From NCBI GenBank assembly GCA_002633005.1, contig NMRA01000828.1, forward strand, positions 62,001 through 126,000: a DNA stretch of 64,000 nucleotides, written 5' to 3'. Position 1 is the first letter of the stretch. Each line of letters begins with the position of its first letter. Of the stretch, positions 26,821 to 52,605 are shown one piece after another. The notes under the pieces were generated by a model, which saw nothing but the letters and a program-made list of their open reading frames with translations, was not told the origin of the DNA and made no database searches. Source of the stretch: Phoronis australis. Its lineage: Eukaryota; Animalia; Phoronida. The translations under genes and the position numbers were made by a program.

Positions 26821-26822
26821 AN

Positions 26823-27425: not shown

Positions 27426-28796
27426 CTTAAATCCGCGATGGTACGTTGACCCAGTCACAATATAATGTGTACGGCAGACAACTAGCTGTAATTTGCACCG
27501 TGAAAACAGCCAGTATACGCACATATGTAGGTCAAACAGATTCGCTTGGAAAAACTCGTATTTCATCGAAAAAAACTAAATTTAGATTTAGATCACTGGT
27601 CCTCGGCCATTCCTTCCTCAAATTAGAAGTGTCTTTGTGTCATGTAAGAAGTGAGAGTTTCTTTAATTTTTCCTCCAAACCATGCTCAGCGAATAAAATA
27701 AATTGCCGTGTTAATTTGTTCATTTCGCAAAAACTCTGCGAGGCAAGTGGGCGTCAGCGAAGTGTTTGAACTATCGCTGGCCAAAATTTGGGCGAACGTT
27801 GCGCACCCGTTAAATTACTTGCGTAAATTAACTTTAATAAATAAATAATTAATTTACACCGTAAAGAATTAATTTGCATCGTAAAGAATTAATTTACAAC
27901 GTTAAAAGTAAATTTACACCTTGCAAAATAATCAATTTACGTCGCGAATAATTAATTCACGCCGTTAATTATCGTTGGCCATATGGGTGAACGTTAGTGT
28001 ACAAAATATCGAGAAATAAGGACCCAAAGAAACGTCCCTTAGGAGTAACAGCCTTTCGGAGTAAGTTGAGAAGTCCTTCAGAGTAAAGACCTAGACCCCT
28101 GAAGTGGCGGCACCGGGTTTTCTCACTACATACAGTTGGCACTTGGCACTCCTGAGTTAAAGTGGACTCACTACTGGTAGAAAACAAATTTGAGGTGTGG
28201 TGACAGTTTTGAGGTATGCATTTTGAATATGCTGTGGGTCGGAAAAGTCTGCTAGTTCACCAGAAGACTTCAGTTTTAAAAAATGGCAGCTTCCTATAGT
28301 AGTATTCCATCACGCATAGTGGACAGTGACAGCCTTCGCTGCGAGTTCAGGTTAACCCTCAAACAACACAGAACAGCACAAATGTGATTGGATCAAAACT
28401 TTTGGACCACATTAATTGTGGAATATATAGTAAATTTACACTCGGGATCTAGTGTTCGCTCGTGTGGTAGTTGGGCTGAAAGTGTGTCCCCATTGCTGCC
28501 GCTTTGGATTATGACGAGTTGATTAAGACTCTTCGCCATGCATTACATCTATTTTACCAGCTGCGAACAGTGTTACACTATAATTCTTCTCACGAGCTAA
28601 AATGAGTTGTTAATGAGGACTATGTGTTTCGACGGAAAGGAGACGAACTTCTGAAACCTAGTAAACTGTGGCCTATGTTAGCTGTGACGCCTGGTATCAT
28701 TGGAGGGTCACTAAAATCTCAATATACTCATATATACTGTACATGTAGGTCTGTCCCTGAAAAACCGCAATCAACAAGTGGATCCTTTGCACTAAC

Positions 28797-29489
28797 CCGT
28801 TTTGGTTCAACGCCGTGTTTTCTCGCCAACTGGTGGTTGTCCCCAATGCACCTTATTCCAAATACACATATAAACGAGGTCATCAAGAAATTCATGCTCC
28901 GCTCCAAAAATGACATTTGATAACTATTCATGGAGAGGTACGAGAACGGGAGAGGTAGCTGTCGATCTTCCAAGCTTCTGAGCGCAAAGGCGGATCTACA
29001 GGGGGGCGGGGGGTATTCAAGGAGTTCAACCCCCCCTCAGGACAGGATCAAAAATAAAAATTGAAAAAAAAAACACAAAAACCTTCCTTCCGCTCGGCGC
29101 GTCGGATTCGTTCGAATCCTAACCCCCCTTACTGAAAATGTAGATCTGCCGGCACTGGAGCGTGTCCCTAGGAAAAAAAACTCCACTGAAGCGACGTCAC
29201 TCAAGACAACTGAAAAAATAAATGTCGACCACAGACATTATTGTAGTAAAAGCATTGTCTGTTATATTACGAAGTGGAAACCTTGTTCGTTTGCTGGTAG
29301 TCCCTTCGGTCTGGGAGTAACGCTCAGTTTAATCCCGCCTTTTGTGACGAATTTTGGAGGTTCATAACTGCTGTCGGCTAGAACGATAACATCGTGACCT
29401 TGAACCGTTATCATTGCCAACTTATCGAATGTTTCGGTGGAAATCGTGCAGTCACCGTCAGTCATAGCCAAGATGTCGCAAGAAGCCAC
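28797..29489 (-). pseudogene. Decayed UGT first exon (paralog of 30657-31370)
   Basis: GHDVIVLADSSYEPPKFVTKGGIKL and DRQLPLPFSYL...MSFLERSMN fragments with deletions and frameshifts plus a MITE insertion; donor EPKR|gttagt and downstream intron sequence still match exon A. Confidence 0.88.
28985..29157. mobile_element. MITE inserted in the UGT pseudo-exon, 5-bp direct repeat GAGCG
   Basis: GAGCG|caaaggcggatctac...gtagatctgccggcactg|GAGCG; removing it restores colinearity with 30841-30870. Confidence 0.85.
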
Positions 29490-30502: not shown

Positions 30503-30656
30503 CTGTCACCTCGGAGGGGTACAGCGACAAACCAATACTGATGCGAAGCGTCACCTAGTGAGCATGAATAACAATAACTTCAATGTACCCATGAAAATGA
30601 AGAACCCGGTCTGTCCCTGAAAAACCGCAATCAACAAGTGGATCTTTTGCACTAAC

Positions 30657-31370
30657 CTGTTTTGGTTCAATCCCGTGTTTTCTCGCCAACTGGCGGTGGT
30701 CATAATGCATCTTATTCCAAACACCATACATAAAAGAAGTCATCAAGAAATTCACAGTTCGCTCCAAAAATGACATTTCCTGTCCTACATGATAAAGATT
30801 GATGGGGAGGTATGAGAACGGGAGAGGTAGCTGCCGATCTTGCAAGCGTCTGAACGTATCAAAAGGAAAATATTCCACTGAAGGGACGTCTCCAACAACA
30901 GCCTGGATCACTATTTTACACACAAATGCTGCGTTGTAGTAGATCATGTCAAATTTCTCACGCCTCAGTCTATCATGAACCTCTGACGAATTCGCAAACG
31001 CTTCGCATATCTTTAAAGGAATGTCAACCACAGACATCATAGTTTGAAATCCATTGTCCGTCATATTACGAAGTGGAAACCTGTGCTCGTTTGCTGGTAG
31101 TCCCTTCGGTCTGGGAGTAACGATCAGTTTAATCCCGGCTTTTGTGACTAATTTTGGAGGTTCATAACCGCTGTCGGCTAGAATGAAAACATCGTGACCT
31201 TGACCCGCCATCATTGCCAACATCTTCTCGTCATTTCGCAGCGCCGAGTTCTTAATCGCCGTTAAAGGACATCCCAAGATCTTTGCTGCTTCCACATCAA
31301 AACTGGTTGCATACCACACAAAGAGTAACAAGCCAATTGTACCCCGGAGACACGTGGTTGAAACAGCCAT
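30657..31370 (-). CDS. UGT N-terminal first exon A (no dedicated C-terminal exon before the next first exons)
   Basis: ATG 31370 MAVSTTCLRGTIGLLLFVWY; KILGCPLTAIKNSALRND...GHDV; MSFLERTVN; donor EPKQ|gttagt phase 0. Confidence 0.92.
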
Positions 31371-32001
31371 GGTTGTGAACACACTGTGAAGTGTGAGCTA
31401 AGCGACAGTATACACACACCTGCACTTTGCCCTTTCTGTGTTGTGTCTACAGGGTGAATCAAAAACGCCAAGCTTAGGTAACGGCGGCGGTACTGTAGAA
31501 ACATGTCACCTTTAGAAAATGACTCCGTTTTACAGATTTCCAGTGGCTAATTCAGTGGGATACTCTAAATGAAAAATACACCGTTTGAAAAAAACAGGTA
31601 GCTGGTGTAACATACCGGATTTCGATAAAAATTCATATGAAATCGGAACTTCAGAAATTAGCCAAGATCGAACTCGTAAGATTTTATTCGCAGTAACGGA
31701 AACGCCGATTAGAACAACAGGGGGGGCAATATTACAATCGAACACGCCTCGGTGGAAAATCACGCAAATTAGTCATCCTCAGTTGGTCAGCATTGCTAAG
31801 TTCTCACCTGGCGGGCCATGCAAAGAGCGCTTTCAGCATGCAATGTCTGGGTCGACCCCTATGGTCACAAATATGGACAGACTGATCATCAGTAAGATAC
31901 AATCCGATTGCGACATACAGCTTTGTTTTATGCAAACATTAGTGGTGTTAAGTTTCCAAATAAAAGTTACTAACCAAGAGAGTATTAGGAGATATACCAT
32001 G

Positions 32002-33329: not shown

Positions 33330-34642
33330 AGGCGAAGCCAACCTTTTTTCGTGACATTTTTAGCAAAAATAAGGTTCGTTGATTATCCCAGACATATTTT
33401 TCACTTATTTACTGCTTTTCGTAATTTAATTAATTACTCGTCGTATACTCCAGAAGTGACGTTTTGGGAGGCAAGAATTTCGCGCCAATTTTTTCATATA
33501 GTCTGCACAGTGAGAGCAGTCGAGTCAGTCATTGTTCTACTTCGGTTGTGATAAGTTCGGTCGTCGTTTGCTTTTGCTTACGAGTCAGTCTGGGGTGTAC
33601 TCATTATAGTCTCACGTACAGAGGAAGAACTGTCCTACTTGCCCGAGTGTCCCGCGACACACTCCCACTGAAGGGTGATCTTAGCACCCAAACTGCTTAC
33701 ATCCCGCCGTGTGACTCCCTCGCCACACACCTGGCACCTTCCAAATAGCTCCAATACAAGTCCACAATAAACTTATCAAACTTAGGCTCACCGATCTCTT
33801 CATTGGATGACTTACTGTCCTCTTCACTGGGTGTCGAACTGGGCCTGTTTTCACTCCCGCTACTCAACATCGCTGCAGGGCTGCTTAATTTACAGGCTCT
33901 GGGCTAGAGACAACAGCACAGGTCGAATCACTGCTACTTCCCGGAATTGCACGCAATGGGGTACGTTCGGAGGCGGGTGACAGTAGATGAAGTGCCTCCA
34001 GTCACTGTATATAGTGGTCACAGCTCGCGAGGCTTCTCGCTTCAAAAACGCACTTCTCGGGGTTTGCGACGGGGCACTGCCGGGAATCAACAGCGACGGT
34101 ATGGTACCCTTCTTCAGGCGTTGTTTCGCCGGGACCTTCATCAATTCAGCGTACATATCTGTCATAATCTTAAGGCAGAAAATGCTTGCCACACACTCGG
34201 TAACCCTCCACTGCTTTGCACGTTGCGTGGGTGGGTAGCGCTGTGTTATAGGCACATGAACGAGCTAGCCAAGTATGGCGAAGTGTGTCATCCTTCGGAA
34301 AGCGACGCAAGGTACCCAAATTAAGCGCGTGTGAGACGATAAAGAGTACATCCCGGCACGCAGTAACAGCGTGGCATGTTGACTGACTTGTAAACAAAAG
34401 CAAACGACGACCGAACTTATCACAACCGAGGTAGAACAATGACTGACTCGACAGCTCTCACAGTCAGACTATTTTATGAAAAGAAATTGGCGCGAAACTC
34501 TTGCCTCCCAAAACGTCACTTCCGGTGTAGAGGACGAGAAATTAATCAGATTACGAAAAGCTGTAATTAAGTGAAAAATGTCTGGGATAATCAACGAACC
34601 TTATTTTTTCTAAAAGTGACATGAAAAAAGTTGCTTTCGCCT
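33330..34642 (-). mobile_element. Kolobok-like DNA transposon, long TIRs, frameshifted THAP domain
   Basis: TTAA|AGGCGAAG...TTTCGCCT|TTAA; about 250-bp imperfect TIRs; internal RRFPKDDTLRHTW...RVCGKHFLP and, in another frame, RLKKGTIPSL (THAP C2CH + AVPTIF-like box). Confidence 0.85.
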
Positions 34643-36630
34643 TTAAGACTCGAACGCGTGTACTGGCAGCTGTAATACAGGGGTCATCAAGTGCAAACTA
34701 GGTCAGTTAATCGTATGCAGCAAAACCAAAGAAGCCATGCACATGAAACTGAACTAGTAGACGGGCAGCCGTCTTACCTCTTGATCAGGTCGCCTAAGAC
34801 AGCTGAACACAAGTAATGTACCCCTTCTGGAGGATCATCTATGATATGCACCCATCCGAGTGGCCACAAGGGGAGTAAGGCCAAATCTATCTGAATTCAG
34901 GTACGTGTCGGCCTTTCTATTATACAAACTTTATATACCAAATTTCACGGAGACTCTGTCAGGACTTACTTGTACCGGTACGTACAAGTTGACGCACATA
35001 AAAAGATATTGTCGTTAGGGGACGCCACAGTAGTCGGCCATGCTTTCAATGGTCCTCAAAAGGAACACTAGTCGGTGCCGATCGAAAATTCATGGATATT
35101 TTTCGTCGACAAAATTTGTAGATATTGAGGCAGACATCACTGAAAACTCCCACTAGAGGGCTCCACTAATTGAAAAGTTAATAGCCTCCGTCTTTGAATT
35201 TTTAAAATCGATGCATATCATAAGCGAAATTGTCAATAGATTTTTTCAGCATACGTGACAGATTTCTGTACTCAAACTGCCTCTGGTCATGAGCCTCAAA
35301 AAACCATCGATGCATGCACCGGCACTCGATTTTCTGGATGACGGCACAACCATGTAACAAACATAATGTTTTATTACAGTGAGTGTTGAGGATACGAATA
35401 ACAGATAGGTTTAAAGGCCTGTGGGTCCAGGCAGGATTGGATAACAAGGCATTTCTAAACTTTCACTGCTTGGTGTTCGGCAATCTATCACTTTCTGCTA
35501 ATGTCAGAAATCAATTATTGTCCTGACCGGAAGATGTGAACCCAGTTTGTCAGAGTTGATCTGGTGATTTTGCCATTTTCAATCCAAAGTCATGAGTCAG
35601 AGGAAATTCCCTTTTAAGCAACCATGGAACTTACAGAGAAACTATCAACACTTCCAGCATCAAAGCCGAGACTCAAATTGTATTATACTAGCCCCTAAAG
35701 CCACAATATTTCTGTGTAAATGTCAGGCAATAGAACAGAGACTACATACCATCCTGTGCAAAACAAATGTTTATAACCACGGTAACAGTAACAATTGCAA
35801 GTTAACCACAACTGCCTCCTAACCACAACAATAACGTCTACATACTTATGCAACAAAAACATTATAAATAGCTTCCAAAATTCCGTCATCTTGAACATTG
35901 AAAAGTAGGCATTTCCTAAAACAATGGAGGAAAATTCCTGATTTCAATAAATGATGCACTTTGACCATCAGAACTGAGACTTAATGACGTCTTAAAAGTT
36001 GTTTGTTGAAATGAACAAAAACCTCTCAATTTCAACTGTTTTGGCTCCCATTGCCTGATAATGAAATTATCCAATTAAATAGACCAGTAAATGAACCTAC
36101 TGAGAACTGCATGGACTACGACTTCCAAATTTCAAAATGACTATTATAAATATCAACAAAAAGTTTCACGACACAGTGATTTTTCGTAAATCTACCCATT
36201 ACCAATAAGGAATGTAGGAAAAAGCCCTTGACACTCTGACAGTTTTGAAGTTATGGATACCATACTAACAAGTAATCTGTCTCATAGTTATCAAGACAGT
36301 AAACATATTACCAGTTCTGAACTAGGTGAACAATCTCCATCAAGTCTATGAGCATCCTAAGTTAGGTCTAGAACCATCTCATCTAATAATAAATTAAAGA
36401 GAACGAGATGGCCAGTACAGTAAGGTACAATACATCAAAACATGGTATGGTACAGTATAGCATGTGACAAAAAATCTGAATATATTGCTGAATCCAAATC
36501 GAAAAATAGATAATAGATTCAGAACCACACCCATCACAACTTAAAAGCATATCAGATCTGCTTTGAGGTAAGTAAAAACTATACAAACAGCAACACAATG
36601 AACTAACCCGCCTCCCCACCATCAGCATTG

Positions 36631-36782
36631 CTAAAGCAAACAATGAAGAAGAAGAAATGAAATAAGTATAAGATGTAACGCCAGACTGTTATAGCTTTGT
36701 TGCCTGGTACCACCGCACACACTCAGCTGATCAGCTTCTCCGGCTTGACTAGGGGTGTCTCTACCTGTACCTTTACGAGGTC
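36631..36782 (-). CDS. Tandem-avidin gene exon 8 (linker + GPI-type hydrophobic tail, stop)
   Basis: Acceptor tgttgtag|; GPRKGTGRDTPSQAGEADQLSVCGGTRQQSYNSLALHLILISFLLLHCLL*; phase 1 fits exon 7. Confidence 0.78.
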
Positions 36783-37532
36783 CTACAACAATAAGACAAA
36801 TTCACATTAAAAATCTTTCAGAAATGCAAAGACAATTCTACTAACACACAAACGCATGTGATTCCTTATACCTAACTTCCATATTCTACTGACGTTTAGA
36901 TGTGAGTGTTTGTTAGTGTGGATGTGCATTTGAGCATGTCTGTGACTCAAGTTTAGAGATGTTAGCCGAACCAGGGTTTTCCCTAAACTTTTCATTGCAA
37001 TTTTGTCTTCTCAAGTATAGTGACTAAGCTATATTTTCTAAACAGCTCCCTGGCTGAAACACTACAGCTTTTGTCAAAAAGCCAATTCGGAACCTACTCT
37101 AGTTTTTTATTTTGAAGGTCAAATTTTTGTGAATAGGTATCAGATGTTTCAAAGACTGACAGTTTATCAGTAACAAGTCACTTGGAATAACACCATGAAA
37201 GGGTTGCATCTTCTATAGTATGTGGCCATGACACAAGGGAGGTAAATTCAACCCAGTTTTATTTGAGTTAGTGACAACAAAACAGACCAAACGCCGACGG
37301 AATAGGTCATGAACAAATTTACAAAAAAAATTTAACATTTTTTTCCTAATCAGTCAAACCGAGTGGCAACGGACCTGGTTCATAATGTTTGCTCGTTCAA
37401 ATTACATTTCTCAAGTTCCAATCAATTTGAAATGGTAACCGTGAACTTCGATTACAACAAGCATTTTAAGAAATATCTCAGGAGGGTTACTTTGTTACGA
37501 TACAGTCTGGCAACACATATTCCGCCACTCAC

Positions 37533-37676
37533 CAGCCTTCTGTTCCTGCCTGGTGAACGTATTTTTGCCAAAGATGGTAGACTTCCAGTTGTCATCGCAA
37601 CTAGCCACACCAGTTCTCAGGATCCACGTCGTCTCAATCGTAGGCTCACCACCTTTATGACACACATGGCACTGTC
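37533..37676 (-). CDS. Tandem-avidin gene exon 7 (domain 2 C-terminal part)
   Basis: tttcag|...|gtgagt; GQCHVCHKGGEPTIETTWILRTGVASCDDNWKSTIFGKNTFTRQEQKA, matches avidin GQC...TMWLLRS...DDWKATRVGINIFTR. Confidence 0.92.
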
Positions 37677-38539
37677 CTGAAAACGTAATGAGACGTAGGT
37701 TAAGCTCAATTTATTCAGTGAAAGGGAATTTTGCATTCCCAATTTTAGAGGTGGCCAACCGTAATAAACTGTGGGTTTTCTAGAGTCGCAGATGGTTTCA
37801 ATGTAAATGAAAATCAAGACCTACCATGGTAAGGAATATTATGAAACTGATTTTATGAGCTTAAGTGGTTTCAGTTTTTGTCTTTGGCGGCTAAATGCTG
37901 AGAAAATTCAGTTATACCTAAACGTGAATGTACATGGAATAGACACCTTGGCTCACAGATATTTTGTGTCTGACCAAGTACAAACTACCCTCTGCTGGTG
38001 ATGGAGAAAATCAGACCATTCCTTTAACCTACAGTTGACAAAAGAAAAAAGTTCCATAGAACCGCACTATGCCTGTGTTGACTGTCAACATACAAGAGTG
38101 ATAATTATAAGCACAAGTCTTCAGATTAAGAATTATAACCTGATATGGCAAAAAATCATTGCAACTAAGTTTTTTAATTAACAATTAACTATCTTAATAA
38201 TTTCATTTTGGCAAAGACAGCAATAATCTACAAGACTTCAATAAGATCCACAACAAATCAAAGTTGCTCTTTGGAGAATGTAAACACTTTTTAGTCCTAT
38301 ATTGCCATAGGATAGGACGAGACAATTTGCAGCAAGAAGGCAAGGTGACTGGATCTTTAAAAAAACAGGCATATGCTCAACAACTCTTCAGCGGTGCTAC
38401 AAATTTGAATGTTGCTTAAACCAGCCATGCACCTATCTTCTGTTACAAATTAACTGTGGATGATATGGCTCAAAAGATGTTAATTCTATGACCAAACATT
38501 AGATGTAGACACTTGACAAAATGTAGGTCGAATGGCGAG

Positions 38540-38652
38540 CTCAAACCCAACTTATCAAACTAATAGTGAGATCAAACCCAACTTATCAAACCAATGGTGA
38601 GATCAAACCCAACTTATCAAACCAATGGTGAGTTCAAACCCAACTTAACAAA
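38540..38652. repeat. 29-bp tandem repeat x4 (TGGTGAGATCAAACCCAACTTATCAAACC-like)
   Basis: Directly visible. Confidence 0.85.
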
Positions 38653-38769
38653 CTGCCAGTTCTGCCCAAGTCTGGAACAACTTCTCTTCTGAGTACATAT
38701 CAAAAAGAGAGTAAGTTTACGTGAGAAAGTGTTAGAAATATCAATGAGACAGAAGGTGGTGCCACCTAC

Positions 38770-38919
38770 CTACAAATCCTGTGATGGAGGATCCATTCTT
38801 CCACACAACAAGCAACGTTAACGTCGCATTCGCCCCTTGCACCCTCCTGAAACCAAACACTTGAGAATGCGTTGTCCCAGCGCTGCCTCTAGTTCTTTCC
38901 ACACCAGTGCGATACTCCC
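38770..38919 (-). CDS. Tandem-avidin gene exon 6 (domain 2 middle)
   Basis: gttctag|...|gtaggt; GEYRTGVERTRGSAGTTHSQVFG...LVVWKNGSSITGFV; 150 nt, phase 1-1. Confidence 0.9.
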
Positions 38920-39314
38920 CTAGAACAGCAAACGACAGTAAAATGAAAACAATACCAGGAGTTTGACTATGGCCACTGGATGTAAGCAAACTGGATACTC
39001 ACAAGTTCATTGTTGAAATTAACAGAGCACCAAATGACATTCAGCTGATTAAGGTAGCTCACTTCCAAATTCTCTAAATTTCCATATTTGCATGTCACAC
39101 ACTCACTTCAATATTAGATAGACAGGACCTGTTTCTTTGTGAACGTTTATCACTCGACTGGCAAAACAAATGCTACTCTATATGGTATGCTGGTGTTTTT
39201 ACTATAGGCTTTGAACTTGTACTTTTTGAAAGTGGCAATGTCTTCATTCTGAACCATCATTACAGACATGTATTTCCAATGTTGTAATTTAGAATATAAA
39301 TCAAAGTGGTTTAC

Positions 39315-39410
39315 CTTTAATCTCACCAGAGGACTCTTGAGTTAGAATGATTTCTGACCCCACATCGTTGTACCAAGCACCACTGATGTCAGAACATTTG
39401 GTGATTACCT
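39315..39410 (-). CDS. Tandem-avidin gene exon 5 (domain 2 start)
   Basis: ttcctgcag|...|gtaaac; EVITKCSDISGAWYNDVGSEIILTQESSGEIK, matches avidin KCSLTGKWTNDLGS. Confidence 0.92.
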
Positions 39411-40546
39411 CTGCAGGAAATGAACTTTAAACGTGTACAAGAATAACGAGAATACAATCATATCAAAGCAAGAGAGAGGGGAGAAGGGGGGAGGGAGGGA
39501 GGGTGAGAGAGAGAGCAATTTCAAAGCTGCTATCCACCTGCATTCTGCCAAAGCATATTAATTACTTGATTTAGACTAATACCAACAAAACTGGCTTCAG
39601 TGTTCATTACTCTGATCAGAGGTTATTTCTAGGTTTGAGGCTATGCAAAGAGGCACATCAAGTCAACTTAATCACCCAGATTTCGAGCACTGAAGATCTG
39701 TCAGTTCATTTCCAAGCCAGGAAATAGGTTTTGAACACGGACCAATTGGGTTCCAATTTTATCATGGCAAGAGGTCAAATCAAAAGCTACCTTTTGACAG
39801 AAGGTCGCTCAGAGCAATTTTGTACTGAAAACGTAGGTCATAAAAATTGTACTGCATGATGTTAGAATTGAAATGAAAACGCAAGTCATAAACCTTTTAC
39901 TGCACGATGTCAGTTTTGAAGTGAAAACGCAAGTCATAAAACTTTTAACGGATTCCTTTTCAAAGCGGATATAAACCCATACTTTCAGTAAAAAAATGCA
40001 AATTTTGATTAAGACCACTTACCATTATGAAATTAGTCTCAAATTGTTCCTAGTCATAAATAGATGAGACTTCCAGGCTTGACAATAATAGACAATTCAT
40101 CATGTCTACAGGCCAAACTCACACATTTTCAGTTCACATCACAGCTTCAACTGAAATATTCTGAGCTTGCTATGAAGAATGACAGGTCTTCCCAAACCCA
40201 GAGACCACTTCTCAACTGAGTAAGGAACAAGAACAACCCACTGAGGTATAAGCTGATAAGTGGCCCAACTCAGAACTTGGATTTTTGACAAAACAAAGGT
40301 TTAATGTTGCTTGATGGCCTATAAAATATAGGTACAGTTGTGCTGTATTACGAGAATTTAAGCCAAATATATGAATACTGCACCTTTTGAATCCTGGGGA
40401 CGATTTTTGCTACGGTCTTCCACACTCTGAAAAATAAAACAATTTTCAAGACAATCAACTATTGAGTGAATTAATGACAAGAAAATTGCAGTCTGCAAAG
40501 TCAATTCATAATTTAGAGAGCTCTACACAGATTAACACAAAAAGAA

Positions 40547-40655
40547 AGGTATATTGATAGCAATACAATGGGAGTCAATTACAAGGTATATTGATAGCAA
40601 AACAATGGAGTCAATTACAAGGTATATTGATAGCAAAACAATGGAGTCAATTACA
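40547..40655. repeat. About 36-bp tandem repeat x3
   Basis: AGGTATATTGATAGCAA(T/A)ACAATGGAGTCAATTACA repeated three times. Confidence 0.85.
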
Positions 40656-41308
40656 CGACTAAATTTCATTCTGGGATATAAATGTTAAAGGTGAGCGCTG
40701 TAACAGTTTATGTTTTGAGCATCTTTTCTTTTTTTTACAAAGATAATTAAAACAAAGTGTTATGACAAACAGCGCATAACCTTAGCTGCCTAACAGTTTC
40801 ATGCGAGTCCAATCCCATATTGATGAGATATGAAATTCTGAAGCCATATTTTGACATTTTGACTCCTACAAAACATTACCCTCAGCATGCTGTTAGTGTT
40901 TTCATAGAACTGTGCATTTGTTAAAACAGTTTTCAATTGATGAGTAGATTAGTTAAGCATTATGAAAACTATCCTACTTGAATAACTAATTCATAATCAT
41001 CAAAGGTCGTGTTTTCCATCAAACAGAATGTTCAGTGATTGAAGGTGAGCGCTCACAGTAAGTACACAACCAGCTAATAAACTCGCACAGTCACATGGTT
41101 GTTGAGTTAACAAACTCTGTACAGGGTATTCAAATTGCTCTAAACTCTGTTCATTTATTTCAAAATCTGCTAATAGCATTAAACAATATGAAGTACCAAT
41201 TTAACTAATGAGTGTGTTTGTGTGTAGTTTCATACTTTCATTACGTAGTTGACAAAACAAAGCATATACCAGAATCCTGTCCAAGTATTTTTGTGGCAAC
41301 CCTATTAC

Positions 41309-41506
41309 CTACCACAAAATTAATGGTATAAGGTATGTTGTTTTCTGTCTCCAAGGCGACTGTCTCTTCCTCAGTGGGTTTCCGTCGCGTGAATATGTCC
41401 TGGCCAATCATGGTCGACTTCCACTTGTCGCGACATGTGTTTGCCGAGTACCTCATAAGCCATGACATGACCAGCTGCTCCTCACCATCACACACATGAC
41501 ATTGAC
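41309..41506 (-). CDS. Tandem-avidin gene exon 4 (domain 1 C-terminal part + inter-domain linker)
   Basis: gtgtcaag|...|gtaata; GQCHVCDGEEQLVMSWLMRYSANTCRDKWKSTMIGQDIFTRRKPTEEETVALETENNIPYTINFVV; 198 nt. Confidence 0.88.
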
Positions 41507-41757
41507 CTTGACACAGATATAAATAATTACCTTAATCAGTTACATCTTTGTTTGGCCTTGACACAGATAGAAATAATTACCTTAATCAGTTACATCTTTG
41601 TTTGGCCTTGACACAGATATAAATAATTACCTTAATCAGTTACATCTTTGTTTGGCCTTGACACAGATATAAATAATTACCTTAATCAGTTACATCTTTG
41701 TTTGGCCTTGACACAGATATAAATAATTACCTTAATCAGTTACATCTTTGTTTGGCC
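41506..41757. repeat. 50-bp minisatellite x5 overlapping the exon 4 splice acceptor
   Basis: CCTTGACACAGATATAAATAATTACCTTAATCAGTTACATCTTTGTTTGG, five nearly perfect copies. Confidence 0.95.
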
Positions 41758-43517
41758 AAAGTACGATTAGAAAACAGACAATCATCAGCATAATATACAG
41801 TAGTCTTATGAATAGACAAAACGTTGAGTTAATATGAACTTTTTTATTTGTGCGGCGATTGTCCGTTTTCTAATACCTTGATCAGGTAGCTCAACCAACC
41901 CATTGAAGTATGCCAAATTAATGAAGTTGTTATTAGGAACTCGGTCACCTAACTGTGTAAGCTGTACTGAATATCCTTAAGGTTAACTTAATATGCAGAA
42001 CCATAGAAAATTGGCCAAACTTGACTAACCTCAAAACATCTTATCTCACAAATGACTGATCGGACTCCTATGAAACTTTCACCCTGTTTTATGCCGCACT
42101 ATTCTTCAAAACAATGAAAGGAGTTGTTTTTAAAGTGCTCCATTTTTGCGAGCTGTGAAAAATAGGACATTTAATGAATAAAATTTTGTGAATATGTTAC
42201 CGATACCGTTGTTTTGCTAAGGATGTACCTTTTGTTTTTGCTCATTTTACTAAAAAGACATGGTCATGTGACCCAATTCATAGCAAAATGGTACAAAGCC
42301 AAATTCCACAGGCTTTCTACTATGAGGAAATATATTTCTACTGAGTTACAACGTATAGTAGATGATTTGCTAAGTGGATCGACACGTCCATAAGGTGATG
42401 CATAACCTTCAACCCAACTTGCCACAAGCACCTCTAGACAAACATCAGGCTCCAATTTATCAAGTGTTTTCCTAAACAATTGAGATGCACTGTTATGTAA
42501 TGGCTTATCAGACCCATGTGCACTGAAATTATTTCTACTTGATTTCCATGACTGCTAATAGCCAATCGAAATAAACCTAATCTGTAATTTGTGGAAAGTG
42601 GAGCCAGATCCTGGATAGAATTTAGTGACAATAGCAGCAGTACCGAGAGCGTAATTATAATTAGGATTGAAAGAAAACAAAATCAACAATTAAAATTCAT
42701 TTTGATGACAAACAACTCATCTGATGGTGAACAATAATCTTAGAAATACTAGTACTCATATGGCACTCAATAACAATCGTGGAAAGACAAAAATAAAAAA
42801 ACAATTTCAACGTAAGCCAAAAACTATTAACGAATAATTCAAAAGCTATCAACTACTGACAAGTTATAACATGAGCACCAAGGTGAGGGGTAGGACAGCC
42901 AGTCAAGCACGTGTCTAGGAACATCAACTTTCAATGAAATTTTCAGATTTGCACACAATCAAAAGGCGATTTCCTCAAACTTCAAATTCTGTAGAGCAAT
43001 TTTATGAAAATTGGTTGTATATTTCTGAGCCTCAAGGGTCTGAATTGATTGGCACCAGTTTTGAGTAACTACAACAAAAACAGTAAATCTTTCAACTACT
43101 TGCTACACACACAGTATGGCGCATGCGTAAATATTTTGTCTAGTGACCAACTTCAAAGTACTAAAGATAAAACATCTATGAGTTTCCATGACAACAACAC
43201 TGTAATCAGTGAAAACAATAAGTGACAACTTATTTTATTTGTGATTTGATTTTTTGGCACGTCGCAAAGCGAACTCAAAGCACTGAACCAGTGCTAACAA
43301 AAAATTCAAAAAAGGCGAATAAGAATTTTACACCATCATGAGTTTTAATTGATGAAAATGAATCGGAAAAATAATAACAGAATTCCCATGTCACCAACCC
43401 TGTTTGTAACACCCTGTTTGTAACACCCTGTGTGAAGGTCCCATACCAGTAGATGAGCAGTCATCCATCTTAATCCCCTGAACACATACTACGATCATCG
43501 GAACCAGCAAATTTTAC

Positions 43518-43601
43518 CTGTCCAGGTTTTTGTTACTGCGCCGTTTCTAAATGACACGCTGAATCCGAACACATCACCTGCCTTGGCATAGGGCATGTAA
43601 C
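43518..43601 (-). CDS. Tandem-avidin gene exon 3 (domain 1 middle)
   Basis: tgtttcag|...|gtaaaa; GYMPYAKAGDVFGFSVSFRNGAVTKTWT, matches avidin FGFTVNW...TTVFTG. Confidence 0.9.
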
Positions 43602-44439
43602 CTGAAACAACATAACATCATGCTGATGGAATATTGAAGGAAAAAGCTCCAAGAATAGCACCAGCCAACTTTGAAACGTAATTATGGTAATTCCATACTA
43701 CAAAGCTATTACACTTGTAGCATGAAAAGAAACAAGTGGCGAGCAGCATTTCATGTAGTTCCCCACATTTGAAAATCAAAAAGCGGACAAATGAATCTAG
43801 ACCATTTCATATATGAAAATTATCAGCTGCATCACCTAAAAACACTGCGCATCAAGAATTAAAGATTAGGCTAATAAATATAAAAATGTAAAAAAACAGT
43901 CAAACTTAATTTTTTTGTGCATCCACCTGCCTCAATTGACAGAATTTTTAGTTATGCCTGGAATTGGTAAATCATATCGAAAAGCATAAAAATACACTAT
44001 AATGTGTCAAATTCACCACATTTTAAAACGCCGGATATTTCTATGGTGTAGCCAGATGCGGGACAAGGCCTTAAGATGGTGGACCATTCTGCCAAAAGAG
44101 GGAGGGTTGGCAAGCGCAAGCACACATTCCATGAAAACACTAAATGCCGAGAAACACGAAATATAATTTTCAAGCAGACAGGAGTAAAAATGGAGACTGA
44201 ATACCTACTCAATTCCCATATTATTAACTTTAATTTGATGGCGCTGCGTTAAAATATCGAAACTGCATCTTCTTAACACAGATTCCGCTGGAACTATCAG
44301 TAGCTGTAGTGTACACCTCAGTCATCTTTATCATTTCAATCAAAGCAAAAAGAGATTACAATTACCAGCTAATCTGTTTATAGTGACTTGTTGACATGGC
44401 TACAAGCATTAAAGGTGCAATATACCCGGGCCTTCTGTA

Positions 44440-46639
44440 CAGGGCTCGACATAACGAGCTGCAGGTCGCATTTGCGACCTGAAATTTGGTAATGCGAGCT
44501 GAGATTTTTGTCAAATCGCAAAATGCGACCTGGAATTTCCAACGAATGCGAGCTGAGTTTTTACACTTCTCAACAGATACCTGGCAAATACAAAGCAGCT
44601 CTTGTTAATCCGACCGTTATTTGGTTGTTGCCAATTCCAAGTTCAAAAGAACACTAACCGAGAACAGCCCTTCTGAGGACTTGTAAGCAAGTCGCGTGAA
44701 CGTGGGATATGCAGAATCGATCTTTGACGCGTGTCATTGGCTAACACTTTCGGCCACTTTTGTAAATTCCCGGATTCGCCGAAGAAAGTTTCGGGCCACT
44801 GCTTTACACGTGATAAAACTTCACAAAATAACGGTGTTTCTATTAATTCTTAAGCGATAAACTTACCAAACTTTGTGGTGGACAAAAATATTTATTTTTC
44901 ACAGAAGATGTCCTTATTACATGTACCAAATATCCACGACAATATCCCTGATATCGCACTGCGGCACCGTTAACGCGCACGCAGTCCCGGCAGACAATCG
45001 TGACTTAGACTGAGATGTGCTTCTCCTTTTTATCGTATTAAGACAGCCAAAGTGAAAATGACAACCTTATTAATCGCCAAACGACGGTCACGTCTTTACT
45101 TTCAGTTGCCAAGAAATTCTCAAACCCTTTACTTGTTTCTGGGGCTACGTGCGCGAAATATGATTTGTCTTTCACACGTTGTTGCCATCGTAAAGTGTAG
45201 GCCTACTCCAGCGATTCAAGTGTGTGAACTCACGCGTGCACCACTTCAAAGAACAGCGACAGTTCTAAATGAAAGAGTATACCGTCTTGGCTCTGGTTTA
45301 TTTGAAATTGAACTCAGATTCCAAGCCGTTATAAAAGACCCGATGTCCCCGGGACCGATATAACCCAGAACTGAAGTTTTCCTGTTTTAGTACGATGTTT
45401 CCCGAGGTCGGTGTTCTGTAAACCCTGTATTCTATGCCCGTAGCCAGCTATTGCAAATTGCAACTTAACTAGCAGTAGATGCGAAATTGTGGTTGAAGTT
45501 ATTGAACATTTCATTCTTCTCTTTATACACCCCCCCCCGGCAACTTTTCGCTCCCCGAACCACCGTCGCCGTAAAATGTTCAGACTCCTATAGAAACAAC
45601 CTTGTTCCGGCTGAAGCGGGCAGTTAAAAACAAAATCATTCCGGGTGGCTAAAAAGGGTACAATGTAGGTGGTAACGATATCCAGAAAGTCACCCCTACT
45701 AGATGGAGTTTGCCTCGCAAAATCGTATTATTATAACGTTTCTTACCATTACAGCGTTTTAATATCTTATTACCGCAAACACTGAGGTTAACGACTATGC
45801 TCACGCACAAGCCTACTCCCTACCTTTAAAGTGTTTCATAATAAGCGCTCACTGATCTACATGTATTAAAAGTCTCCCCTTAAATTTTGAGAATTTCCAA
45901 TTATGCGCCCACACTTCAAGCTAGCGCCCATCATAGCGCACTACAAACGACCGCGTGTGGTTTAAAATTGACACGCAGCTTATATGGTGTGTCACTTTCA
46001 TTTTACACAACTTGAGTTTTCAAAAACGTCTTTTCACAATATGTAAAAACCAAATCCCAGCTTTGTTTTATACCTTGGAAAGAAAGTTAACACTAGTGAC
46101 ATGCGTGTCGTTTTGTGAATGACCTATTTTTTCCGTACTTGGAAGGTATTGAAGAGCAAACTCGCCATTACCCAAGTTAGTTTGAATCTTTAACGACTTT
46201 GAGGACAGCCAGTAGCAGGCCAGATCTTACAAAATCCCGGATACTTTTTCAACGGGCATTTTCTCCCTTTTCACATCGCAAATTTAGCTACTCGAATGCA
46301 CAAGTCAGTTAGAGAGCACTGATTCAACTTTCACGTCGGCAACTTTAATGCCTTGCGCTCTAGAGTCTTTCAATGGCGGTTGTGAAGAACAGTAAGGCCA
46401 TACCTGCATGAATGAAGTCAATTTTGAGATCCGAAATTTGTGAGTATTTAACAATGCAGGTAAGAGCATAATCTAAACATTTTCTCGATGATCTAAAAAA
46501 TCTATTTTGGCACGTAAAAATGGCGGGAAAATTTTGCGACCTGGCATTTACTAATGCGAGCTGGATTTTGAAAATGCGACCTGGGATTTTGGCTAGGTCG
46601 CAAAATGCGACCTGGCGATTTTAATAGCGTCGAGCCCTG
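44440..46639. mobile_element. 2.2-kb non-autonomous TIR element in avidin-gene intron 2
   Basis: Termini CAGGGCTCGAC...GTCGAGCCCTG, subterminal TGCGACCTG/TGCGAGCTG repeats at both ends, flanked by CTGTA direct repeat. Confidence 0.8.
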
Positions 46640-46772
46640 CTGTAAGAAACAACTTTTGATTTAGGCAACCTATAATTACAAAATCAGACTAGTTTGTACG
46701 TAGGACTCCACAAAAATGCCTAAATTCAATTGACTTCGGAACATTAAACATTAGGTTATAAGCGGACTGTAC

Positions 46773-46931
46773 CGTGTAGTACTGAGTGACTCATCCCCCC
46801 TGTGACACCAATGGCACGTTCCAAGTCACTGTGATACTCTCCATAGAGAAAACCACCGTCCAATCTCATCAAAATAACCTCTTCTCCAAGCTCATTGTAC
46901 CAGGAGCCTGCAATGGACTTGCACTTTGAAC
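46773..46931 (-). CDS. Tandem-avidin gene exon 2 (domain 1 start)
   Basis: ttgttgcag|...|gtacag; GSKCKSIAGSWYNELGEEVILMRLDGGFLYGEYHSDLERAIGVTGGMSHSVLH; 159 nt. Confidence 0.92.
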
Positions 46932-48657
46932 CTGCAACAATTAAAGTCAAGCAATAACCAATCCTGAATATTCCAAACAAGAATGATTCCCAAATGCAAT
47001 TCGGAAGCGTTCACTTATTAAGTCATCACTCGAGGGTAGAAAAGATGACAATTAATGATAATGGGAAGGTAGTTAGACTTATGGTGAAGTAAACGTACTA
47101 ATAGTGAAGTCTATTGTGGTTTAGAATATCTCCATCATAGCTTAGTACATACCATTAGGACAAAATACATTACTGTAATAAAATTTGCATTTTCTGTAAC
47201 GTGAACTACATTCATTTGAAGACTGTCTGTTGGTGTGTAATGCTTATGCATCCATCAGCAGTATATGAATGTAAGTTTTGATAACCATAACCCTGTCCTA
47301 CATTCAACAAGATTAGGAAGACTTCCGATGCAAACACTGTAGTTATGTTCATATATTTAGCCACAGTGCGTAGAGCAAATTGTTTTAACTCGATGTTTCG
47401 TATAACTGTGCTTGTATACTATGTTCGTTATTGTACTTTGGGCCTCTGGCCTAAAATGCAAATAAAGTGTGGTATGGTGGGACACTTCTGCTGCTGACAA
47501 CAATATCCAACCACCACATAACACATTCGAATTATTACCTGAACTGATTGTATTGTTTGTAATGAAAATAAAGAATGACCATTTGATTGCTGAAATTCAT
47601 TACAGAATACAACAGCAGCAAATGCAACTTACAATTACATAAGAATCATAAAAACGGAATATACAATGAGCTGTAGTTTCTTCCAAATACAAAGGAGGTT
47701 AACTGTGATGACGTAATTAGAGACTGGAAAGGGGATTATATCATGACGGGTAATGACAGTCTGGGGGGAAGTTATATCATGATGACGGGTGATGACAGTC
47801 TGGGGGAGGGTGTAAATAGTGGAAACACTTGGATGACATATGTGAACTTTATAGAAATGTCTAATCTGGTCTACTGTTAACTGTTCCAGGTAATGTTTTC
47901 TCCAACATCACACTCAGAGTTACACTACCTACCGGTATTTTCCATAGTCAAGCCCATGATGATGTATTTGAAAAATGGAAAGTTTGAGGTGTTTTAGTGA
48001 CACCAAATAAACGTTTCATCAGGTGAGCTTATCTACGGAAAACCCTGCTTACAATCTATCACCCTTCAAGGAGTAATAAAATCATTGCCGATGTGATAAT
48101 TGCTCAGCCCAAATATACAAAAGAAGTTAATTGCAGTGATATTCCTGACCAAATATGAGCCTGTGCCCTTTGGACTCACCTGATGATTTCAGGTGTACCT
48201 TTATTCAAAAAGTTGTACCCAGCAAAAACTTAGTGTAATCAGTGTGACAACATATGAAACAGAAACCCTCAAGCGCAATCAAAATATGAACTACGTCATG
48301 TTTTACGCGACTGGCTGTAAGCTGACTAGAACCTTGCAGTTTTGGAAGAGTGTTAATTTTAAAAGATGTGCCTGGGGGCACACTGCTGCAATACACTTGC
48401 CTATTCCTTTTTGACGCACTGGCGCAAAGTCGCAGTCCAAGAATATCCCAGTAATTGGCAGTTCATGGTGCTTGATTGTATCAGTGGACAAAGTAATCAT
48501 AAAGGAACGCAGAAGAAATCGACACAATGTAGCCAAACAGTTTGCAAACTACACTTATTTTGTTTGTAAGAAAAAAGCTGAGCATAAGATATTTATCTGA
48601 CACAACGGAAAATTATGAACGATGTCAGTATGTCTTTTATGAAACGCTAAAACATAC

Positions 48658-48736
48658 CTTCAACAGAGGACAGAACAAAGCAGGAGATATACACCAAGAT
48701 TGAAGACAATTTCAGCCACACCTCCACCTCAGCCAT
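48658..48736 (-). CDS. Tandem-avidin gene exon 1 (signal peptide)
   Basis: gccATGG context; MAEVEVWLKLSSILVYISCFVLSSVE G|gtatgt, phase 1 fits exon 2; upstream acceptor ttctgacag near 48756 suggests a non-coding first exon. Confidence 0.82.
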
Positions 48737-51001
48737 GGCCACACCTGATCTTAGCCTGTCAGAAACACAATCAAGTGTAAGTGACTGGGCCCTTGAAAGG
48801 CAGAACAGATGGTCAATACAGCAAATCCTGGATGAGAGTCATGCTTCGATTACGTTCTCAAGCAATTTAGATGTAAGTGCTCAGGAATAATACTCATTAG
48901 ATTACATTAGGACATTCTTTAAAAGCAGACAATAAAGGCACTGCATGTTTTTAGTACCAAGTATCTTCAAGCAAGGATATACCTTAACCGAAACAGGGTA
49001 GTCGCTCCTATTTTTACCACGCCCACCGCAGTGTTATAAATGACCAGTTGCTGATTTGGGCAACTGAACGAAAGATTGCTGAAAGAAAAGTTTGATTACT
49101 GGAGTATTTGTTTGAGTTGGAAGGTCAAACATCGACGACCTCCTAAGTCGTCCCTCTATGCGTACTTATAATTAAATGACTGATATTTTCATCAGATATA
49201 ATTCACCGAAAAGCTTCCGGCATATGAAGCTCGTTTCATTGGCCAAATGGATGAATGTTAGGCATGTAAATTATGTGCGCAAGTTATTATTGTTGTTAGA
49301 GGTGCAAAGTAATAATGTGGCGTAAAGTAATTAATTTACACATCTTTACGCTGCAAACGCCATTAAAATTTACTTTACGCGGCAAATAATTATTTTACGA
49401 AGCAAATAATTACTTTACAACACCTCTAAAAAACTACCATACGCCTCAAACAATTATTAACTTTGGCATCTAATTTACATGAGTAACGCTCACCCATTTG
49501 CCTAGCCATGCAATGATATTGACAGGAGCTTCACTGCTGTGCGTGAACTTGGAATCCTGCTTAATCTCAAGATTGAGTATGCGTGAACTTGGAATTGAAT
49601 ATTCTTTAAGGAAAGGAGAAATTTTTGTTCAGTGAAAATATTTTTGTACTTAATTTAGGGTGAGCAAACCCAAATACAAATTTCATCAGAAACACTTGAA
49701 AATAGTGTTAAATGATAGCTTTAGACATGCCGTTTATACAACTTTTTGAATTTTTCAAATCGGTTCGAGTTATTTGAATTTTAGAGCCTCAGAAATGGCC
49801 TTTTTTTCAGCAAACGGCACCCAGAAATTTCAGGCCACAGAAAATGGCAAGTTTAGACAACTATATTTGGGAATCCATAGCTCACAGTGTTCTTTAAACA
49901 AGATGGAGAGTCCTTTGCAAGTAGGTTAACAACATGGCATAGACACCAAACCACAAATTATTACATTTTGCACGAACAAGAACAACAAAAATTAAAAAAT
50001 TCACCATCGCCTTAGTTTTTTTCGACTTGTGACAGGACATTTTTGCCCTTGAAGCTAAGTTGAACAAGTGATGTTTTAAAAAGAGAGCAACTTATTACCT
50101 TGAAAATGACAAAACACTTCAAGAATTACTATGGTTTAGTGAACATGTTTCTTTTGCGCCAAAAGATTTTGAAATAACTCTAAAAAATGAAATTTGCATA
50201 GCAAATGAATTCAAAATGAGCAAAAACCAGAAAACTAGTCTTTTTTAGAGTATTTCGTTATTCATTTAAAAACCTATGAGGTTATGTAAATTAACCTTTT
50301 TTCCCAAGTAAGATCAATGTTTTCACAATCTTAAGTTGCACTCCAAATGACAAAAAATGATAATATGCATTTTTAATTAAACAAAATTAAATTGGACCCT
50401 ACAATTTCAACAAATTTTAAATCAATTTCATTCCTATCAAATAATATAGAAACTGAGAGGTATTGTGTTGGTGACTATCCAAAAAGAGCATATTTGTATA
50501 CTAAAATGTTTTGATGCACTGCAGCGGTGACTGAACATTTATTTTCGTGAAATATGTAATTTTTTAAAAATGAAACTGATCACAGCGCCCCCACGAGGTA
50601 GTAAAAGTGTAACAGAAAATATTTTTGAAGAAAATAGAAAAAAATGACTCTATCCCCAAAATTGAAGTAAATTAAATTTCAAAAGTATTCTATATTATTT
50701 TAATGAAAATATTTTACCAGGTTTGGGCCACTTTTTGTAATTTAGAGAAGTTTTGACTGGTTCTGTTGAATACATTTGACCAATCAGGTTCGAGTTTAGT
50801 TTGAACCCTGCAAAGGTCAACATGGTTCTTGAAAAATGACTGAAGTTACCTTTTTAGAAGTGTTCCTAAATGGAAATGGTGAGATAAAGTGAAAAAATTT
50901 GATCAGGAATGGATTAGGACATGATAAGTGATTATGACATTGAGTGTACACTTTCAGGATTTTTCCAGGTGAGAGAGTGGCGAGGCAGTAAATTAAAAAA
51001 N

Positions 51002-51119
51002 ACTTTGATGGTTTAGTCGGTGCGAGGCATAATTCGCCGAAAAGCTTCCGGCGTACAGAGCGCCTATAGCCTCTACATCGCCTCTGCTTCGGGCCAACAG
51101 AGGCGATGGTCATTGCCTA
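51002..51119. mobile_element. Terminal fragment of the long-TIR element family, cut by assembly gap
   Basis: Nearly identical to 52484-52605, ending GATGGTCATTGCCTA. Confidence 0.85.
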
Positions 51120-51401
51120 CTGCGAGTGCTGCAGTGTCAGTGCCATGGGGCCAGCAGTTGAAAGTGGTGGCTGTCTATATCTATCTGACTTTAGTGGCTG
51201 CCGGTAACAACACTAGCATAGAGGATAGTAGACCTGCTCAAATGTCACGGTTCGTAAAAAAATCTAATGGAGAAAACCTAGGAGGCTAAAACAACTCCCA
51301 GAGAAAACCGACAACCTTTCACGCCTGTCTCATGATCACCTTGAAACACTTTACGGCTAACTTTGCGACATATCAAAAGCTTTGTTTATTGTTTCCAACA
51401 G

Positions 51402-51489
51402 ATGGAGCTGGGAACACTGACCTATTTCTGTGGAAGGCGACTGTTGACAAGTCATGAACGTTTTTCATCAACTTTCTTGAAGAGGATGA
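51402..51489 (+). CDS. Candidate 5' coding exon of ARL6IP6 homolog
   Basis: ttccaacag|ATG...A|gtaagt; MELGTLTYFCGRRLLTSHERFSSTFLKRM; phase 1 compatible with 52629; no homology recognised. Confidence 0.4.
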
Positions 51490-51654
51490 GTAAGTCTAAC
51501 GCTGTGACTGCTAAGAGTTTGTTGTGAGAATCGTAACGTTGTTTAACTAGCCCTCACTTTCCTTTGGATGGTGCAGCTAAACACCGTTTTAATTTAAAAA
51601 GAAACAACAATATGTTATCTTGTTTTGTTATCGTAGTTATTTCTTGATCCACAT

Positions 51655-52605
51655 TAGCCTTAGCCCTTACTTAGGCAATGACCATCGCCTCTGTTGTTGG
51701 CCCGAACCAGAGGCGATGCAGAGGCTATAGGCGCTCTGTACGCCGGAAGCTTTTCGGCGAATTATGCCTTGCACCGACTAAACCATCAAAGTCACGTTGT
51801 TATAAATACCTTTTGCGCATAGAGGAACACCTGAGGAGGTTATCGATGTGTTTAATTCCTTCCAACTCGAACAAATACTCCCATTATCAAACTTTTTCTT
51901 CGCGCAGTCCCTATTTCAGTTCCCAAAATCGTGAAATCAAAATTTTCATATTTTTTAACCAGGCCGAAGGTCAGAAGTTGCGGTCCTACCGGCGAACTTT
52001 GAAAGCTGAAGTCCCCGCCCTCTGCGTACGTGCTGCAGGGAACCAGCCGTGCATTTGCCGTGTTGTTAAACATTAAAATGTCAAATATGTGCACAAAGAC
52101 TATTAAATGTCATATCAACAGCATTCCTTTTTATCAAATACAAACAATAATTCATTAAAATACAATCAGTTTCAAGTAACGCCAATTAAAGACAAGTAGT
52201 GGTGGCATTTTGGAAACGAACATTTGACTGAAAAGACCGCAGTGGCTCACCTTTGGCCTATTTAAAGATTGAGGTCATGAAGTCACATCACCTAGCGAGC
52301 GCGGTAAAAATTGGAGCGTGCGCAGTATAAAAATGTTGAGTTCACAATTTTGGGAACTGAAATAGGGATTGCTCGAAGAAAAAGTTTGATAACGGGAGTA
52401 TTTGTTCGAGTTGGAAGGAATTAAACACATCGACAACCTCCTCAGGTGTTCCTCTATGCTCAAAAGGTTTTTATAACAACGTGACTTTGATGGTTTAGTC
52501 GGTGCGAGGCATAATTCGCCAAAAAGCTTCCGGCGTACAGAGCGCCTATAGCCTCTGCATCGCCTCTGGTTCGGGCCAACAGAGGCGATCGATGGTCATT
52601 GCCTA
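51655..52605. mobile_element. Mutator/Foldback-like non-autonomous element (about 270-bp TIRs, 9-bp TSD)
   Basis: TAGGCAATGACCATC... at 51672 and its reverse complement ending at 52605; GATCCACAT duplicated at 51646-51654 and 52606-52614. Confidence 0.85.

Follow-up and report, generated by a model that had tools for sequence, protein, structure and literature searches.

The stretch analyzed here, called the window, comprises 64,000 nucleotides (nt) of Phoronis australis DNA (contig NMRA01000828.1, positions 62,001 to 126,000), and its minus strand carries a gene for a tandem avidin, a protein with two avidin barrels in one chain. In a model corrected with RNA reads, the gene is expressed and has nine coding exons, which add up to 1,101 nt and encode 366 amino acids (aa). 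The RNA data consisted of raw reads of three runs from one study (X2, X3, and X4; about 18 to 19% of each run) and contigs from another (X1), all picked by species label and mapped onto positions 33500 to 50500 of the window; first mates covering the exons fell on the plus strand, as minus-strand RNA should give. A single 1,779-nt X1 contig ran through every one of the eight joints between the ATG exon and the tail exon, and one transcript carries the two avidin barrels together with the hydrophobic last exon, as the first-pass annotation of this DNA had proposed. Two separate genes were ruled out, since this contig and the joint reads bridge both barrels.

That annotation, made from the letters and a list of open reading frames, had described eight exons on the minus strand with GT-AG borders throughout and every intron in phase 1. 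The strand, the borders, and a stop-free frame of 1,062 nt (353 aa) were all confirmed, and six of its seven introns were recovered exactly in the RNA reads. Intron 4 was not: the exon 4 donor lies 4 nt earlier, which leaves an exon of 194 nt, and it is followed by a 43-nt exon that was missing from the first model, has AG/GT ends, and keeps the frame open. The joint from 41313 to 40426 was found in 26, 31, and 108 first-mate reads of X2, X3, and X4, respectively, and that from 40384 to 39410 in 22, 18, and 112, so that both new-exon joints (18 to 112 reads per run) were level with the flanking joints (13 to 101). The first model's intron 4 was absent among the joints listed, with 34 weaker joints lying outside the listing, and a rare eight-exon transcript form may exist. 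One intron of the corrected model is in phase 0, and the claim of uniform phase 1 did not hold. The proposed last exon is indeed used (Table 1). Read depth in bin 36902-37468 of the last intron was 0 in all four runs and no read-through form was seen there, which ruled out a secreted form arising by last-intron read-through.

Read variants in exons 1 and 2 were silent except for His75Tyr and Trp7Cys; reads over exon 2 differed only at 46788, 46858, and 46876, none of which falls in codon 43 (46882-46884). Exon 3 is joined on both sides (43599/46771 in 25, 37, and 96 reads; 41504/43516 in 29, 26, and 77), and its 27 aa alone gave no Pfam match. At the 5′ end, loose read ends behind 48761 (X1, X3, and X4) matched the window only once above 48000, at 51324, pointing to a likely noncoding first exon; this exon lies outside the mapped stretch, so no joint reads were counted there. 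The short upstream open reading frame (uORF) in this exon persisted with codon changes in the X3 allele, and three copies of a repeated element with near-identical frames (50817-52595) flank the exon and the likely promoter. Within the gene, a 50-nt tandem repeat (41502-41757; 5.1 copies, 98%) multiplies the exon 4 acceptor, of which the listed joint uses the exon-adjoining copy. A tblastn search limited to the 64-kb window revealed no further avidin exons.

Table 1. Exons and flanking parts of the tandem-avidin gene in window coordinates (read counts are for the raw RNA runs; bits are Pfam scores)
Feature	Position	Strand	Remarks
Likely 5′ noncoding exon	51316..51340	-	Upstream end approximate; GT donor at 51315; 4-codon uORF
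Coding exon 1 with 19 nt of 5′ untranslated region (UTR)	48658..48755	-	ATG at 48736; predicted signal peptide, aa 1-26; joint 46929/48656 in 34, 54, 101 reads
Exon 2, first strands of barrel 1	46773..46931	-	PF01382, 24.0 bits; codon 43 = Glu at avidin Ser16
Exon 3, middle strands of barrel 1	43518..43601	-	Phe97, Val102, Lys104 at avidin Trp70, Ser75, Thr77 (alignment)
Exon 4, end of barrel 1 and start of acidic linker	41313..41506	-	Trp136 = avidin Trp110; 36.3 bits; joint 40426/41313
Exon 5, 43 nt, 14 linker residues	40384..40426	-	Joints on both sides in X1 to X4
Exon 6, start of barrel 2 (Asn201, Val203, Ser205)	39315..39410	-	19.1 bits, E 0.0017; joint 38918/39314 in 30, 13, 93 reads
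Exon 7, barrel 2 (Tyr221, Thr223, Trp258, Thr265, Phe267)	38770..38919	-	24.6 bits; joint 37675/38769 in 20, 19, 53 reads
Exon 8, end of barrel 2 (Trp286, Trp299, Asn307)	37533..37676	-	36.6 bits; best PDB sequence matches are avidins
Exon 9, coding part: post-barrel family motif, spacer, predicted omega site, tail, stop	36631..36782	-	Joint 36781/37532 in 35, 24, 97 reads
3′ UTR, approximate end	35260..36630	-	Stranded depth in bins 35201-36901; X1 contigs 35260-35925 and 35997-36781

The encoded protein is laid out as a signal peptide (about aa 1 to 27, called by hydropathy from a hydrophobic 19-mer at 4 to 22 with a mean Kyte-Doolittle [KD] value of 1.81), barrel 1 (about 28 to 150), an acidic linker (151 to 190, isoelectric point 4.3), barrel 2 (about 191 to 311), a family motif, a polar spacer, and a hydrophobic tail, and every element read from the first frame, including the C-G-G stretch and the terminal hydrophobic run without a cytosolic tail, was present. 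The two avidin domains expected from a Pfam scan were also found: PF01382 matched five of the eight exon pieces of the first model, two of them in barrel 1 (at 2-39 and 78-116 of the profile) and the other three in barrel 2 (at 2-25, 28-76, and 78-116), and four of the pieces reached the curated cut-off (24 bits). The barrels share 34% identity with each other, and in the alignment each carries the Cys4-Cys83 pair of avidin and a second conserved Cys pair; we infer that these pairs are disulfide-bonded.

A search for the same architecture in other invertebrates yielded two-barrel relatives in cnidarians, annelids, and cephalopods. With two exon pieces as queries, a single protein stood out among 12 candidates, P0001 of Owenia, which is 43% identical to the Phoronis protein over 350 aa; P0001 as the query led to 51 proteins and an alignment to 86, and an unindexed search gave 597 matches, of which the best 150 were taken. 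Named cnidarian members come from Nematostella (LOC5500205), Actinia, Desmophyllum, Acropora, Dendronephthya, and Xenia, and the others from Owenia, Ridgeia, Lamellibrachia, Paralvinella, Octopus, Argonauta, and Acanthosepion. The named echinoderm and hemichordate matches have a single barrel; the range of the tandem design is possibly wider. Full-length relatives contain two PF01382 stretches (202 to 235 bits), and the best of them are 43 to 46% identical to the Phoronis protein, of which no search returned a full-length copy (best 43.6%). Matches in the Atlas were confined to clusters of single-barrel avidins, at 0.80 (lead level). Nearly all named tandem members are labelled "uncharacterized" or "hypothetical," one being auto-named Avidin and one Fibropellin-1.

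In a midpoint-rooted tree of 63 barrels (without the near copies P0005 and P0013, the incomplete P0045 and barrel 1 of P0026, and the P0151 anchors), 23 second barrels, that of Phoronis included, formed one clade (support 100/99), and 22 first barrels formed another (92/85), with which Phoronis barrel 1 grouped; fibropellin-type barrels were on a branch of their own. Because first and second barrels each cluster, the tree fits one duplication before the cnidarian-bilaterian split, an age that would follow from the clustering under a midpoint root, and it ruled out a lineage-specific duplication. Other tandem designs were seen as well. Argonauta P0059 (536 aa) owes its two avidin barrels to a separate duplication and has another repeated region in front of each of them, and P0082, P0085, P0087, P0093, and P0098 (from spiders, where named) combine a first avidin barrel with a very divergent second one and have no hydrophobic tail.

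The first-pass annotation had left novelty to a search. No description of a natural two-barrel or glycosylphosphatidylinositol (GPI)-anchored animal avidin was found in the open full-text literature, subscription journals and bioRxiv supplements being outside this scope; the design is not unique to Phoronis, however, but belongs to a widespread unnamed subfamily. One recent paper, PMC13514124, reports no clear evidence for avidins in sea anemones, while six of the eight avidin sequence rows in its 2026 supplement are members of the tandem family, listed only as "Avidin"; the accessible part of that paper holds no remark on a tandem or a GPI anchor. The Phoronis gene is a member of an apparently undescribed, old, and widespread subfamily of tandem avidins with predicted membrane tethering.

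The C terminus of the Phoronis protein has the features of a GPI signal, as the first-pass annotation predicted. Small-residue triplets at 339-341 and 340-342, 26 to 27 aa from the end, place the predicted omega site at Cys339 or Gly340 (36712-36717); a spacer follows, and the protein ends in a hydrophobic run of 17 residues (aa 350 to 366, KD 2.78) with no residue after it and no cytosolic tail. X1 shows an in-frame 3-nt deletion at 36645, within this tail. These calls were made with a home-made rule based on general features of GPI signals, rather than with NetGPI. Under this rule, 19 of 28 full tandems passed, the Phoronis model among them, versus 3 of 90 single-barrel matches, and those three are N-terminally cut pieces of the tandem family; in a looser set that includes cut first barrels, 34 of 51 passed. 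The misses include P0003, just below threshold, the differently built tandem P0059, P0004 and P0038, whose hydrophobic ends lack an omega triplet under the rule, and Owenia P0001. In the last, the place of the GPI-type tail is taken by a transmembrane helix, followed by a cytosolic tail that contains tyrosine, and membrane tethering therefore appears to be kept there by a second means; a Tyr-x-x-hydrophobic motif in this tail would fit endocytosis. A further anchored design was seen in the unnamed P0155, in which one avidin barrel is followed by a transmembrane helix and a short tail.

The pockets were compared at 11 positions taken from the zebavidin paper PMC3811995 and mapped via pieces of chicken avidin, in a hand-picked set of 24 full tandems (27 were aligned; P0059, P0026, and P0045 were dropped, and the Octopus isoforms P0011, P0014, P0016, and P0019 were left out). 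In Phoronis, barrel 2 keeps all 11 positions, with Leu14 to Val counted as allowed. Barrel 1, by contrast, deviates, with Ser16 changed to Glu, Trp70 to Phe, and Thr77 to Lys, in addition to Ser75 to Val and Leu99 to Met; the Glu codon was confirmed by reads, and the Phe and Lys codons are those of the assembly. Since these barrel 1 residues are lost, and since bulky charged pocket residues are a known route to lost binding (PMC8033661), the Phoronis chain is likely monovalent. Of the proposal that the tandem captures biotin, the barrel 2 half is thus consistent with the pocket residues, whereas barrel 1 would probably contribute no site. Across the set, 20 of the second barrels and 15 of the first retain the full 11 positions. 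Trp110 exerts its effect on the adjacent subunit; it is present in both Phoronis barrels in the alignment and is kept in seven of the nine deviating first barrels. The 3-4 loop of the family is of the zebavidin type, without Phe72/Ser73; biotin leaves zebavidin about 100,000-fold faster than it leaves chicken avidin (PMC3811995), and the loop suggests releasable binding.

The pseudo-dimeric pairing proposed for the two barrels was predicted in AlphaFold models of two relatives, P0002 and P0027, built from a 40-row alignment and no templates (predicted local distance difference test [pLDDT] 82.4 and 81.5; predicted template modeling score [pTM] 0.77 and 0.75, respectively). Each barrel has eight strands in both models, and the models match known avidin structures. 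Over both barrels, the match was to the engineered single-chain streptavidin dimer scdSav, with Z 28.5 and a root mean square deviation (rmsd) of 2.2 Å over 230 residues, the next row, at Z 15.6, being far below; template modeling (TM) scores of the two models against scdSav were 0.77 to 0.82. Because both models match scdSav far above single barrels, the predicted arrangement of the two barrels is that of a native streptavidin pair. Circular permutation was ruled out, as the family poorly matches 2c4i in chain order (TM 0.45, rmsd 15.7). When two copies of P0002 (aa 22 to 316) were predicted as a complex, in which the alignment was not used, the score was 0.06 against a mark of 0.32, which weighs neither for nor against the pairing of two chains.

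The interface positions, as named in PMC3811995, differ consistently between the two barrels. At site 67, a small residue stands in 22 of the 24 first barrels and a bulky one in all 24 second barrels, site 78 is Gly in 22 of 24 second barrels and in none of the first, and site 115 is Ile or Val in first and aromatic in second barrels throughout (24/24). Phoronis has Ser67/Leu67, Thr78/Gly78, and Ile115/Phe115 in barrels 1 and 2, respectively. This asymmetry fits hetero-pairing across the large 1-4 face. As to whether the protein stays a single chain, as first described, the Phoronis linker contains no furin-type site, whereas six of the 24 relatives (P0008, P0009, P0015, P0029, P0039, and P0053) carry one, and in some lineages the barrels may be cut apart yet still paired.

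Elsewhere in the window, a cluster of UDP-glucuronosyltransferase (UGT) genes occupies 6808-31397 on the minus strand, where six open reading frames (ORFs) were scanned by Pfam. It contains C-terminal halves at 6808-7704, 15561-16484, and 21832-22674 and several N-terminal halves, with four N-terminal-like ORFs (26076-26858, 26859-27575, 28728-29036, and 30555-31397) upstream of a single C-terminal exon, a layout that presumably resembles the alternative first exons of vertebrate UGT1A. A decayed reverse-transcriptase fragment (1143-1727, plus strand) scored below the Pfam cut-off.

We favor, tentatively and at not quite an even chance, the reading that the gene encodes a GPI-anchored biotin-capture protein, similar to a vitamin receptor, with one live pocket per chain in Phoronis. 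For the 366-aa protein, the prediction is secretion, trimming at both ends, and attachment by GPI to the outer cell surface, where barrel 2 would likely bind biotin and pass it on to the cell in the way that the folate receptor handles folate. Two chains could meet to form a pseudo-tetramer, in which barrel 1, its pocket blocked by Glu, Phe, and Lys at Ser16, Trp70, and Thr77, would have a structural role and contribute its Trp136 (avidin Trp110) to the barrel 2 pocket of the other chain. An off-rate faster than that of chicken avidin would let the pocket catch biotin in dilute sea water or gut fluid and free it once it has been taken up. We prefer this reading because the anchor and the barrel 2 pocket are conserved together over great distance, because Owenia shows a second anchoring mode with a cytosolic tail, and because the loop suggests releasable binding. 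A wider proposition, possible but held with more doubt, is that the family represents an overlooked cell-surface biotin receptor that arose from a duplicated avidin, predates the cnidarian-bilaterian split, and forms a natural single-chain dimer with complementary barrel faces, anchored by GPI (in Owenia by a transmembrane helix), with lineages such as Phoronis turning barrel 1 into a nonbinding partner. If so, soluble avidin of the egg-white type would be only one branch of animal avidin biology, and Phoronis would have arrived at the monovalent design that was also made by protein engineering.

Several points weigh against biotin capture of this kind. Animals already have a biotin transporter, SMVT. 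Capture, anchoring, and an epithelial location are all proposed from sequence, which does not separate uptake from denial. The structure models are of relatives at 42 to 44% identity and not of the Phoronis protein, the match to scdSav does not fix which streptavidin pair applies, and the asymmetry at sites 67 and 78 could be compensation within one barrel. P0010 and P0055, whose barrel 1 is degenerate, have lost Trp110 while keeping barrel 2. Nine of the 28 full tandems fail the GPI rule, four of which (P0010, P0014, P0016, and P0055) are family members without any hydrophobic tail, and one Heteractis unigene gives isoforms both with and without the tail (PMC13514124); tethering is therefore dispensable in some forms. 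Finally, binding cannot be judged from residues alone, as PMC8033661 warns.

Other explanations were weighed against these data. A surface-anchored biotin binder could serve nutritional immunity, denying biotin to microbes in mucus or on gametes, with shed or tail-less forms extending the denial into mucus. Avidins of birds are classically antimicrobial and infection-induced (PMC8033661), tail-less paralogues and isoforms exist in the family, and the sequence evidence for binding is the same as for capture; however, soluble single-barrel avidins are already present in these phyla, so an anchor would add little for denial alone, the transcripts were found in all three raw runs without a known challenge, and zebrafish avidin is reported to be dispensable against Streptococcus agalactiae (PMC13425791). 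We consider this role somewhat unlikely. A role without biotin appears less probable still, since the changes that abolish binding in sea-urchin fibropellin (Trp70 to Arg and Trp110 to Lys; PMC8033661) are absent from barrel 2 in 24 of 24 proteins and fibropellin-type barrels fall on a separate tree branch. It would have the barrels bind another ligand, for which the Glu/Lys pair of barrel 1 might be a new site, or serve adhesion or oligomerization as in fibropellin, whose avidin domain does not bind biotin (PMC8033661), and it would account for the extra Cys pair common to the family and fibropellin-type barrels and for the deviation of barrel 1 at pocket sites in 9 of 24 proteins.

It is also conceivable, but quite improbable, that the hydrophobic tail is not a GPI signal and that the protein is a soluble two-barrel avidin, secreted or held in the secretory pathway. 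The GPI call came from a home-made rule and not from a trained predictor, and P0004 and P0038 fall short of this rule for want of an omega triplet; yet in Phoronis the position of the triplet, the polar spacer, and a hydrophobic end without a charged tail all argue for an anchor, the tail pattern is kept from anthozoans to cephalopods, and the last intron has no read depth.

Eukaryotic avidins figure in a 2021 survey only as secreted proteins. A tethered two-barrel form that is conserved would allow a direct test of a different role, vitamin capture, in tractable animals (Nematostella, corals, and octopus), and a role in vitamin capture would bear on biotin sharing between marine animals and their symbionts. 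The folate receptor is a GPI-anchored vitamin receptor of unrelated fold; the proposed likeness to it, in which an anchored protein captures a vitamin with high affinity and also occurs in shed or soluble form, is an analogy only.

Among known avidins, those of vertebrates (chicken avidin, AVR4, xenavidin, and zebavidin; PF01382) share with the tandem family the eight-stranded barrel (predicted for the relatives), the barrel 2 pocket residues, and the signal peptide, and zebavidin was the best single-barrel structural match (Z 15.6). They are soluble single-barrel homotetramers, whereas the Phoronis protein has two barrels, an extra Cys pair in each, and an anchor signal. Known eukaryotic avidins are secreted (PMC8033661); the words "tandem" and "membrane" are absent from the available text of that survey, which states that many eukaryotic avidins are not covered. 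The avidin-like domain of sea-urchin fibropellin shares the Cys pattern and the style of barrel sequence, and several relatives are auto-named "fibropellin," but fibropellin has CUB and EGF repeats and Arg70 and Lys110, whereas Phoronis has Phe and Trp at 70 and Trp at 110. No CUB or EGF exons were found in the Phoronis gene by Pfam, and fibropellin membership was ruled out by the lack of these repeats, by the Trp70 and Trp110 kept in barrel 2, and by the separate tree branch. Closest in design are the engineered proteins. The dual-chain avidin dcAvd (PDB 2c4i) likewise has two avidin pockets in one chain, but it was built from circularly permuted monomers (PMC3105096), and the tandem family is not permuted. 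With scdSav (PDB 6s4q and 6s50), the family shares two barrels in native order, a linker, and, in the models of two relatives, the same relative geometry, and a monovalent scdSav with one dead pocket has been engineered (PMC7411666). scdSav is artificial and soluble with near-identical halves, whereas the tandem family is natural and has divergent halves, a fixed interface asymmetry, and a GPI-type tail. As natural single-chain dimeric scaffolds, its members would offer two independently tunable pockets and nonidentical coding halves, as dcAvd and scdSav were built to give.

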